Position numbers: made by a program
In this document: in pieces, positions 49,301 through 52,300 of the stretch
Position numbering within the stretch: position 1 is the stretch's first letter
How the letters are laid out: each line of letters opens with the position of its first letter
Assembly: GCF_055900595.2 (NCBI RefSeq)
Contig: NZ_CM148325.1
DNA length: 64,000 bases
Direction: 5' to 3' (one strand)

Positions 49301-52300
49301 GGATCAAACTGATCATTCAGGGCGAACCGGATATGCCGATTGTCAGAGTCGGTGCGCGCTTGCTGTATAACTATCTGGTTAAAGGTGGCGTTCAGGTTTT
49401 TGAGTACCGCCGCCGCCCGCTCCACGGTAAAGTGGCATTGATGGACGATCACTGGGCGACGGTAGGGTCCAGTAATCTCGATCCGCTCAGTTTGTCGCTA
49501 AATCTCGAAGCAAACGTCATCATCCACGATCGTCATTTTAACCAGACGCTACGCGATAATCTGAACGGCATCATCGCCGCCGACTGTCAGCAGGTGGATG
49601 AAACCATGCTGCCCAAACGCACCTGGTGGAACCTGACGAAAAGCGTGCTGGCGTTCCACTTTTTACGCCACTTCCCGGCGCTGGTTGGCTGGCTTCCGGC
49701 GCACACGCCGCGTCTGGCGCAGGTTGACCCGCCCGCTCAGCCGACAATGGAAACTCAGGATCGGATAGAAACTGAAAATACGGGGGTGAAACCCTGATGA
49801 GTAAATCACGCCCGCGCTGGCGCTTAGCAAAGAAGATCCTCACCTGGCTGTTTTTTATCGCAGTGATTGTGTTGCTGGTGATCTACGCCAAAAAGGTAGA
49901 CTGGGAAGAGGTCTGGAAGGTCATCCGCGATTACAATCGCGTTGCGTTGCTCAGTGCGATTGGGCTGGTGGTCGTCAGCTATCTGATATATGGCTGCTAT
50001 GATCTGCTCGCCCGCTTCTACTGCGGTCACAAACTGGCGAAGCGCCAGGTGATGCTGGTGTCGTTTATCTGCTACGCCTTCAACCTGACGCTCAGTACCT
50101 GGGTCGGCGGCATAGGTATGCGCTATCGTTTGTACTCCCGGCTAGGGTTACCGGGCAGCACTATTACGCGGATTTTCTCGCTCAGTATTACCACCAACTG
50201 GCTGGGCTATATTTTGCTGGCCGGGATTATCTTTACCGCAGGCGTGGTGGAGCTGCCGGACCACTGGTATGTCGATCAAACTACGCTGCGTATTCTCGGC
50301 ATTGGCTTACTGCTGATTATCGCGGTTTATTTGTGGTTTTGCGCTTTCGCGAAGCACCGCCATATGACCATCAAAGGGCAAAAGCTGGTGCTGCCTTCAT
50401 GGAAATTCGCCCTCGCCCAGATGCTGATTTCCAGCGTTAACTGGATGGTAATGGGAGCGATTATCTGGCTGTTGCTGGGTCAAAACGTGAACTATTTCTT
50501 TGTACTGGGCGTGTTGCTGGTAAGCAGTATTGCCGGCGTAATTGTGCATATTCCAGCAGGAATTGGGGTGCTGGAAGCAGTGTTTATTGCGCTACTGGCA
50601 GGGGAACATACATCAAAAGGAACGATTATCGCCGCCCTGCTCGCTTACCGTGTTCTGTATTACTTTATCCCACTGCTGCTGGCGCTGATCTGTTACCTGT
50701 TACTGGAAAGCCAGGCGAAGAAGCTACGGGCGAAAAATGAAGCGGCGATGTGAAGTTCAGTTAAGTTCTTTTGGTTTAAGTTCGGGATGCTGTTTATAGA
50801 TGGGGTTCATGATATCGATTAACATGCGCCCCATAATTTCCCCGACGGCGGAACGATAAATATTAAGCTCAGATTCATCGCAAGCTTGCTGAACATATAA
50901 TACTGATGCATCTAATTGAGAACCAATATTGAGCATTAATGCGCTGATATCTGCTGCCAGAGTCTTATCTTTGAACATTTTATAAACCTTTTCAATTTCT
51001 AAACATAAAAGATACTGCATGTTCCATTTTATTACCTACGGGATAATTATCTTTTATTGCATATGTAAAATCACTTGTTTTGATTATTAAGTTTTTTATA
51101 GCATCATCAAGATACTCAGGAACTAATGATTCAATATTTTCAAGATCACAACCAAGATCAATTATCTCTATTAGCTCTTTATCACAATCATTTTTGTGTA
51201 AAAGCCTGGAAATAAAAGGTCTGAAAACTAGTAGTTCAGATTCATCTATAGTTATCGTGCCTTCTTTCAAGGAATGTAACACTCCTGAAAGCAGTATAGC
51301 CATAAATTTATCCATATATTTATTATCGATGGTACAAACTAACTGCATGATATTCTCCACTATTGTATTTCAGATACTACATTTCTAAACGTAAGTCGAA
51401 AGTGCGTTAAATATGAAACCGCGTATGCCTTTGCCAGACAAGTGTTATCGCTATTGCTGCAAGTATCCCAAAGAAGCCGATAAAATAGTAATAGAGTGTT
51501 AATGCACCTGTAAAAGCGCAACGAACCGGACTCCACAACTCTTCGCTATGGCATTTTCCTGCCAGTTCAAGGAGCTTATTTCGTCCATGCGAGATAATGC
51601 CTGACCATAAAAAAATCATTAAGCAACTTATTACCCAAATGGGCCGTTCACTCATTAATGCGGCATTCACGATGATCACCAGGGCCAACCCTGTCAACGT
51701 CATCATAATGATAAAACGATGAGAACCAGGATCAACATTAAATAATAAACCGGCCAGCATACTGATTAAAAACATCGCGCCCGCAGTGCTGAACACAAGG
51801 ATAATGGCAGATACAGGAGCTAAAATAGCAACGACAATCGCCACCAAAGAGATTAAAAACAGATACATTACGCCTGCGATGGCGGCATTTATCTTGTTGA
51901 TATCTTTACTTAAGCCATACATACAAAGTAATAATAATCCTATGACAACATACATTGGTGGTGAATCATATTTGGTTGCCGTAATTTCGAGATAATTAGC
52001 TATCCAGGCCAGTCCTGCGGTTGCCGCCAAACCGACAGCGGTAATGAGCCATATGGCATTTAATATCCTGGCCTCGTACTGAAAATCATTAGTTATGTTT
52101 TTTGATGAGTACGATTTCATTATTTTTATATCCTTAAGTTGAATATCAATATCTATTGCAATTAACGCAAAAAAACTCATCAATTCACGCTACCACACTA
52201 AACCATTAATAAAGTCAAGAACCGTTACAGCAAGTCTAAAAAGGACGCTTAGGATACTGAAATAGAGTGTTATTGCCCCTACAACAATACAGCGAAGAAC

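Follow-up and report, generated by a model that had tools for sequence, protein, structure and literature searches.

The strain-variable ybhN-ybhL interval of Escherichia and its DUF3969 gene, a probable orphan immunity gene

Immunity loci and the ybhN-ybhL interval

Variation of gene content among strains is a mark of heterogeneous polyimmunity loci (Zhang et al. 2012, PMC3482391), and protection against non-self effectors is the role ascribed to orphan immunity proteins (PMC10539506). SUKH is an established immunity superfamily (PMC3113570), and Rhs immunity genes (rhsI) as well as orphan modules of an Rhs C-terminus (CT) and rhsI have been described in Enterobacteriaceae (PMC3150448; PMC3967940). 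Here, these systems are compared with the interval between ybhN and ybhL in one window, i.e., the whole stretch of DNA that was analyzed (64,000 nucleotides (nt) of contig NZ_CM148325.1), whose surroundings are those of the Escherichia coli ybhP-clsB-ybhN / ybhL-moaEDCBA region. The interval includes a gene of the uncharacterized Pfam family DUF3969, and we consider it probable, albeit with appreciable doubt, that interval and DUF3969 gene form a strain-variable orphan (poly)immunity locus, which would be a known kind of system.

Like heterogeneous polyimmunity loci (PMC3482391), the slot consists of separable cassettes in one orientation, differs in content from strain to strain, and holds no toxin gene. 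With the same loci, and with orphan immunity genes such as those for Rhs immunity in Serratia (PMC10539506), it shares the tandem arrangement on one strand of genes whose small, immunity-type products are unrelated (as seen in sister alleles), and co-transcription is plausible. Across strains, DUF3969 is found together with SUKH-4 in 042, EC42405, and Escherichia albertii, again with varying content, whereas a single recognized immunity family is present in the window, next to a protein of 73 amino acids (aa). The window further differs from polyimmunity loci in being very short, in having no adjacent recombinase, and in being interleaved with membrane proteins of the BI-1 family, for which no immunity role was reported in our literature search (BI-1 combined with immunity protein and type VI secretion systems (T6SS) returned no papers).

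The comparison with rhsI is twofold. DUF3969 homologs share the rhsI position in that they abut or overlap the stop of a T6SS-linked Rhs protein with a variable C-terminus after the DPxGL core end, and in the Rhs elements of E. coli an ISAs1 (H-repeat) element is followed by an orphan toxin-CT/DUF3969 module. The window copy, in contrast, sits between housekeeping genes, remote from any rhs gene, and no toxin fragment adjoins it. SUKH genes occupy the same slot in the three sister alleles named above and would have the same role, but there is no SUKH gene in the window and DUF3969 is an unrelated family. The features of the interval and its flanks are as follows:

49797..50753, plus strand, ybhN: conserved convergent flank; 3 nt separate its stop from that of the 73-aa gene
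50757..50978, minus strand, 73-aa gene: 87-aa open reading frame (ORF) 50757-51020 in the sequence-only reading, before start correction
50992..51348, minus strand, 118-aa DUF3969 gene: 122-aa ORF 50992-51360 before start correction
51407..52120, minus strand, ybhM ortholog: divergent allele, 237 aa, BI-1/YccA family; formerly the 258-aa ORF 51407-52183
52190..52930, minus strand, extra BI-1 family paralog: 246 aa, Pfam Bax1-I
53000..53020, minus strand, terminator-like hairpin followed by a T-run, 3' of ybhL: consensus scan; sequence kept in K-12
53039..53743, minus strand, ybhL: conserved flank, 100% aa identity to K-12 YbhL
50772..51415, no strand, first segment absent from K-12: 644 bp, two small genes (blastn against the K-12 locus)
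52153..52992, no strand, second segment absent from K-12: 840 bp, extra BI-1 gene (blastn against K-12)

The ORFs listed by the sequence-only reading (87, 122, 258, and 246 aa as well as ybhL, all on the minus strand) are mechanically present. Its 29-nt overlap of the two small ORFs, from which an overlapping or coupled pair had been proposed, is an artefact of choosing the longest ORF; it disappears because the conserved ATG starts give proteins of 118 and 73 aa separated by a spacer of 13 nt. When alleles are compared, conservation begins at MQLVC... and MFKDK..., and the sequence 5' of these internal ATGs varies. The ATG of the 118-aa gene has GGAG 8 nt upstream and that of the 73-aa gene AAGG 10 nt upstream, and the same internal starts are used in the RefSeq annotation of strain E200086, which is 99.9% identical over 50500-53200 and 100% identical over the two small genes. 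The AT-rich character of the variable block is confirmed by a guanine-cytosine (GC) fraction that is lowest in the 118-aa gene (0.29) and rises over the 73-aa gene (0.39) and ybhM (0.41) to 0.44 in the extra paralog, vs 0.49 for the whole window. No terminator is predicted by consensus scan between the four minus-strand genes and a strong one is predicted after ybhL. A single transcript for the array would fit this pattern, and the terminator-like hairpin sets the conserved ybhL apart from the variable array.

DUF3969 genes behind a conserved toxin domain

The 118-aa protein matches Pfam DUF3969 (PF13108) with an independent E-value (i-Evalue) of 6.4e-15 over residues 10-91 (positions 4-85 of the 106-position model), and the gene is annotated as 'DUF3969 family protein' in the near-identical strain E200086. 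The protein is small, predicted to be cytoplasmic, and devoid of an enzymatic domain or any Pfam domain besides DUF3969; by eye, no signal-like sequence is seen at its N-terminus. It is acidic (isoelectric point 4.7), and its earlier description as Asp/Glu-rich holds in a mild sense only, with D or E at 20 of the 118 residues. NCBIfam and PADLOC gave no match to it, its PHROG match is non-significant (E=0.061), a PDB sequence search with the DUF3969 profile yielded nothing below E=0.1, and a literature search for DUF3969/PF13108 returned no papers. A profile made from the Escherichia alleles retrieved 333 clusters at E<=1e-3 from 1.84 billion representative proteins, mostly stand-alone proteins of ~110 aa, with named members in Salmonella, Xenorhabdus, Pseudomonas aeruginosa, and Blautia. 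The Blautia protein is fused to HEAT repeats and resembles a polyimmunity protein.

A DUF3969 gene was found directly behind a conserved toxin domain of ~83 aa in seven independent contexts. Three of these contexts were found from DUF3969 homologs. Salmonella enterica subsp. salamae carries hcp, vgrG, a gene for a 1491-aa Rhs protein, and then DUF3969 with a 4-bp stop/start overlap, which is the classic rhsI position; the C-terminus of this Rhs protein, following the DPLGL core end, finishes in the ~83-aa domain. In Xenorhabdus, DUF3969 comes after a 135-aa signal-peptide protein, and on a metagenome contig it comes after a YD/RHS-type protein. The three upstream proteins share the ~83-aa C-terminal domain at 61% pairwise identity. 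An independent test started from the toxin domain itself (51 homologs), and all three further genes that were looked up directly precede DUF3969, namely those for a Carnobacterium LXG protein (type VII secretion system, T7SS), a Ruminiclostridium protein (where DUF3969 is followed by a small protein with no relation to the 73-aa one), and a protein of a prophage-like metagenome contig. The seventh case is the orphan module of the E. coli vgrG-Rhs region near pptA (L032 403-1320; L033 7764-8676; L034 3000-3680), which is present in ~600 of 5426 genomes. Its Rhs C-terminal toxin domain is 78% identical to the Salmonella one, and its DUF3969 gene is frameshifted in most strains and intact in VCSW8. 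P. aeruginosa has DUF3969 in orphan arrays located downstream of cdiA, in one case next to an Imm42 gene. The DUF3969 neighbors examined outside Escherichia are toxin domains and never BI-1 genes. Because the genes directly follow a conserved toxin domain elsewhere, DUF3969 can be regarded as an immunity-type family, and we take this context to be decisive.

W, K, G, H, F, and G residues are invariant in the toxin domain, among them W44, K46, and H62, and its model (predicted local distance difference test (pLDDT) 95) shows a beta-alpha-beta-beta-beta arrangement. It has no Pfam match even at E<=10, no PDB sequence match below E=0.1, nothing meaningful in NCBIfam (best E=0.0055, a 25-residue overlap with SecE), and no convincing structural neighbor in a fold search with the model.

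An orphan immunity protein belonging to a polymorphic toxin system is thus the most likely identity of the 118-aa DUF3969 protein. The protein would bind and block a specific ~83-aa C-terminal toxin domain, which other bacteria would deliver on Rhs (T6SS), LXG (T7SS), or signal-peptide carriers. Because no toxin gene adjoins the window DUF3969 gene, the protein, when expressed, would protect against the incoming toxins of rivals and not against a toxin of its own. The sequence-only reading had suggested an immunity or antitoxin-like protein. For the larger of the small ORFs the first suggestion gains support from the immunity-gene position that DUF3969 takes behind the toxin domain elsewhere; the second finds none, as there is no adjacent toxin gene and no PADLOC or toxin-antitoxin (TA) family match. 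The 73-aa helical hairpin would be a separate cassette of the same array.

Several observations weigh against this reading. Immunity is usually highly specific, and identity between the window protein and the toxin-linked DUF3969 proteins of Salmonella and the E. coli Rhs element amounts to only ~41%. A word-based search gave no Escherichia toxin homolog. The Escherichia toxin domain carries a premature stop, with the invariant Trp changed from TGG to TGA, in both translated copies (the 'plasmid' records pF873-2 and pL65-4, which hold an identical Rhs-element fragment). The 73-aa protein has no toxin link and no family or fold match, and the promoter and terminator matches are consensus matches only.

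The 73-aa protein is acidic and is modeled by AlphaFold2 (AF2) as a two-helix hairpin (pLDDT 85; helices 4-32 and 35-63). It gave no significant match in Pfam (best i-Evalue 0.0081, CpeT), NCBIfam, or PADLOC; PHROG matches of the small window proteins are non-significant (E 0.04-0.09), the fold search with the hairpin returned one non-significant match, and the PDB sequence search with the family profile returned nothing below E=0.1. All 23 homolog clusters with a named source are from Escherichia or Shigella, and several more are metagenome sequences. A degenerate-pattern scan of 100,044 species genomes located relatives only in Escherichia whittamii, Escherichia sp., and E. albertii. No relatives outside Escherichia were found by word-indexed protein search or pattern scan, both of which are of limited sensitivity. 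From its location alone, the 73-aa protein may be a second orphan immunity protein.

One metagenome contig (L008 2825-3226, protein P0009) carries a chimeric 133-aa ORF next to an IS1595-family transposase. Its first ~47 residues are of the Escherichia DUF3969 type and are followed by a C-terminus with a Fic motif (HPFMVGNGRLSR), and it appears from its sequence to be a recombination product.

Variation of the slot and alternative readings

The K-12 interval contains ybhM and ybhL only, as stated in the sequence-only reading, and the ~1.4 kb estimated there as additional agrees well with the net gain of ~1.33 kb seen by blastn, where the two window-specific segments replace 26 and 125 bp of K-12. 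Directly 3' of the ybhN stop, K-12 keeps an 18-bp relic, TTAGTTAAGTTCTTT, which matches the final four codons (K-E-L-N) of the 73-aa gene together with its stop (K-12 locus L003 1755-1772 vs window 50754-50771). Because of this relic, the K-12 arrangement is best viewed as a deletion derivative and not the window as an insertion; since other Escherichia species also carry the small genes, these are probably ancestral and were lost by most E. coli. The small-gene segment was detected in 39 of 5426 complete E. coli genomes, with every context fetched being the ybhN-ybhL interval, and its E. coli alleles show DNA identities of 100, 98, 92, 78, 77, and 73%. The extra BI-1 gene is more frequent (753 of 5426), and the second segment (52153-52992) is also found in T43-type genomes.

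In sister alleles, the composition of the slot changes. E. coli 042 has the order ybhM (a pseudogene with an internal stop, L005), DUF3969, 152-aa protein, SUKH-4, and 73-aa gene, so that the DUF3969 and 73-aa genes lie 1.3 kb apart with two genes between them. EC42405 has DUF3969, a 154-aa homolog of the 152-aa protein of 042, and SUKH-4, but no 73-aa gene, and 2020CK-00188, judged from blastn coverage only, has the 73-aa gene without DUF3969. Strains 88-3493 and AHM8C212RI lack both ybhM and the extra BI-1 gene but have kept DUF3969 together with the 73-aa gene. In E. albertii the order is ybhL, BI-1, ybhM, a fourth BI-1-like gene, DUF3969, a 70-aa gene, SUKH-4, and ybhQ. In several strains, insertion sequence (IS) elements have inserted in this neighborhood. 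The ybhN-ybhL interval of Escherichia is a strain-variable array of small accessory genes, and the window haplotype, with the extra BI-1 paralog, ybhM, DUF3969, and the 73-aa gene in one orientation, is among the fuller and rarer ones. A literature search on ybhM and ybhL returned no account of this polymorphism.

Further details of these alleles are noted here. E. albertii (L020-L023) has four tandem BI-1-like genes, and its array abuts ybhQ because ybhP-clsB-ybhN is absent. In 88-3493 (L004 4644-4988), as in AHM8C212RI, the place of ybhM and the BI-1 gene is taken by an unannotated 114-aa ORF, which reads as a multi-pass membrane protein and could represent a further membrane cassette of this array. 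In 042 (L005 2653-2770), SUKH-4 is separated from the 73-aa gene by a stretch with a 28-bp second copy of the ybhN 3' end and a ~64-bp 3' fragment of DUF3969, which suggests a scar of unequal recombination between two haplotypes.

Conservation of the small ORFs, a check named by the sequence-only reading, was found both across alleles and across Escherichia species. Both ORFs are intact in all full-length alleles over five species (the Escherichia fergusonii copy is called at only 52 aa), with the same genes at the same place in E. albertii, the Escherichia sp. clade, E. whittamii, and E. fergusonii. Between E. coli alleles, the 118-aa gene has a ratio of nonsynonymous to synonymous substitution rates (dN/dS) of 0.24-0.35 at dS values reaching 0.99, and the 73-aa gene has one of 0.20-0.40 at dS values reaching 0.56. 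At this base composition, an ORF of 118 codons would arise by chance with P ~2e-5 and one of 73 codons with ~8e-3. Spurious AT-rich ORFs were considered and rejected in view of purifying selection despite deep allelic divergence; conservation and dN/dS settle at the sequence level that both are real genes.

In a genome deposited as E. fergusonii (CP079891.1, L035), the small genes are 97-98% identical to those of the window, which is closer than most E. coli alleles are, other E. coli alleles reaching only 78-92%, but ybhL is only 86% identical, and a gene for a 553-aa sulfatase-family protein lies between ybhL and ybhM. As far as sequence comparison goes, this pattern suggests cross-species haplotype exchange or a mosaic history.

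The membrane protein genes of the interval also required a correction. Three tandem BI-1 family genes are indeed present (the extra paralog, the ybhM ortholog, and ybhL), but the 258-aa ORF that had been taken for the extra paralog is the ybhM ortholog, and the true extra gene is the 246-aa ORF, which lies outside the 50757-52183 span originally delimited. The 237-aa protein (from the ATG at 52120) has an aa identity of 90.2% with the YbhM of K-12 and of 90.6% with that of E. albertii. Both proteins resemble the BI-1/YccA family (YbhL, YbhM, and YccA) by Bax1-I match or annotation: the ybhM ortholog is annotated as BI-1/YccA in the RefSeq entry of the near-identical strain and its E. albertii ortholog has a precomputed Bax1-I match, and the 246-aa protein matches Pfam Bax1-I (PF01027) over residues 34-233 (E=1.7e-14) and is only 25-29% identical to YbhM and YbhL. 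Scans of the proteins of all four genes against NCBIfam, PADLOC, and PHROGs yielded nothing informative. Unlike YbhL, which is fully conserved, the variable BI-1 paralogs (24-29% identity to it) have a low GC content, vary in presence, and are often degraded. In both genomes inspected, M00057 and GPEC996 (L018, L019), ybhM has an internal in-frame deletion that leaves 129 instead of 237 aa; these genomes come from a '28%-coverage' class that made up 3 of 30 evenly spaced rows, i.e., roughly 10% of complete E. coli genomes. It is a side observation that ybhM looks dispensable and decaying.

How far the BI-1-like proteins belong to the same function is a matter of several readings. The most far-reaching one, which we regard as possible but doubtful, regards every variable part of the interval as belonging to an ancient polyimmunity locus of Escherichia: ybhM and the extra BI-1 paralog(s), DUF3969 and the 73-aa hairpin, and, in other strains, the 152-aa protein and SUKH-4. 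The fast-evolving BI-1-like proteins would then be immunity proteins against membrane-targeting effectors. Separately, the ~83-aa toxin domain would be a new class without a structural relative. A plasmid search with the extra BI-1 protein retrieved chromosomal-type copies and YbhL-like proteins only, and no toxin link.

It is unlikely that the small genes are functionless, decaying relics of an old array that survive by chance or hitch-hiking. Their rarity (39 genomes), the K-12 deletion scar, and the decaying neighborhood, with the ybhM deletions, the 042 pseudogene, and the IS elements, are what such relics would look like, but intact ORFs across five Escherichia species at dS of up to 0.4-1.0 and dN/dS of 0.2-0.35 are unexpected for neutral relics. 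We likewise give little credit to the reading in which the BI-1 paralogs would work together with the two small proteins as a unit, with the small proteins, for example, regulating or partnering YbhM-type membrane proteins (envisaged as FtsH modulator or ion-channel-like BI-1 proteins) and no interbacterial toxins involved. The four genes share one orientation with spacers of 58-69 nt and no predicted terminator between them, and the order ybhM-DUF3969-73aa recurs in E. coli, the Escherichia sp. clade, E. albertii, and E. fergusonii. The small genes persist, however, in strains that have the 114-aa membrane ORF in place of ybhM and the extra BI-1 gene, most E. coli have ybhM without the small genes, and the DUF3969 neighbors outside Escherichia point to toxins instead of BI-1 proteins.

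A toxin-antitoxin or abortive-infection module formed by the small pair appears improbable. The pair is a two-gene small-protein cassette in AT-rich, mobile-looking DNA, and one toxin-domain/DUF3969 pair on a metagenome contig adjoins a phage integrase and AimR; yet neither window protein resembles the DUF3969-associated toxin domain, to which nothing else in the window is similar either, both are acidic, the two genes occur independently, and PADLOC, NCBIfam, Pfam toxin, and PHROG searches gave no significant match. That both ORFs are a single gene split by a frameshift, as the overlap of their longest versions in different frames had suggested, is practically out of the question, given that the 118-aa ORF holds a complete DUF3969 domain of typical length (~110 aa) and covers the Pfam model, its homologs share its end point, all alleles keep this stop and, in addition, a conserved separate ATG preceded by a Shine-Dalgarno sequence of its own, the two genes occur singly or, in 042, far apart, and no fused homolog is among the homolog search results.

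Other features of the window and significance

Outside the interval, the window contains two low-GC islands and two RNA elements, the latter being expected features:

35955-39956: low-GC (30-35%) island between dinG and rhlE, holding two divergent ORFs of 670 and 561 aa
58064-62496: second low-GC (27-39%) island between yvcK/ybhK and uvrB
56570-56714, minus strand: molybdenum cofactor (Moco) riboswitch upstream of moaA, 104.5 bits
4331-4408, minus strand: naRNA4 element, 74 bits

The 670-aa protein of the first island has weak matches to models of SopA-family and HECT-type E3 effectors of the type III secretion system (E=2.5e-23, well below the curated cutoff). The second island encodes a 422-aa SopA/HECT-like ORF (E=3.7e-45, below cutoff), a 321-aa pentapeptide-repeat protein with PipB2/Qnr-like repeats, and a 550-aa ORF. 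By eye, its 422- and 550-aa proteins resemble the 670- and 561-aa proteins of the first island, so that paralogy of the two islands is possible.

With an orphan immunity role as the most likely one for the window protein, DUF3969 gains a testable function as the antidote in a toxin-antidote pairing that was previously unannotated. The partner toxin domain is widespread, as it is carried by Rhs proteins of the T6SS, LXG proteins of the T7SS, and stand-alone secreted proteins, in Proteobacteria as well as Firmicutes. The ybhN-ybhM-ybhL interval of K-12 is recognized here as the eroded remnant of a strain-variable array, and the recognized immunity genes in other Escherichia arrays suggest how the unexplained y-gene ybhM could be approached. 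Orphan immunity genes have a bearing on strain survival under contact-dependent killing in the gut, and cataloguing them helps to predict the competition between E. coli, Salmonella, and their relatives.

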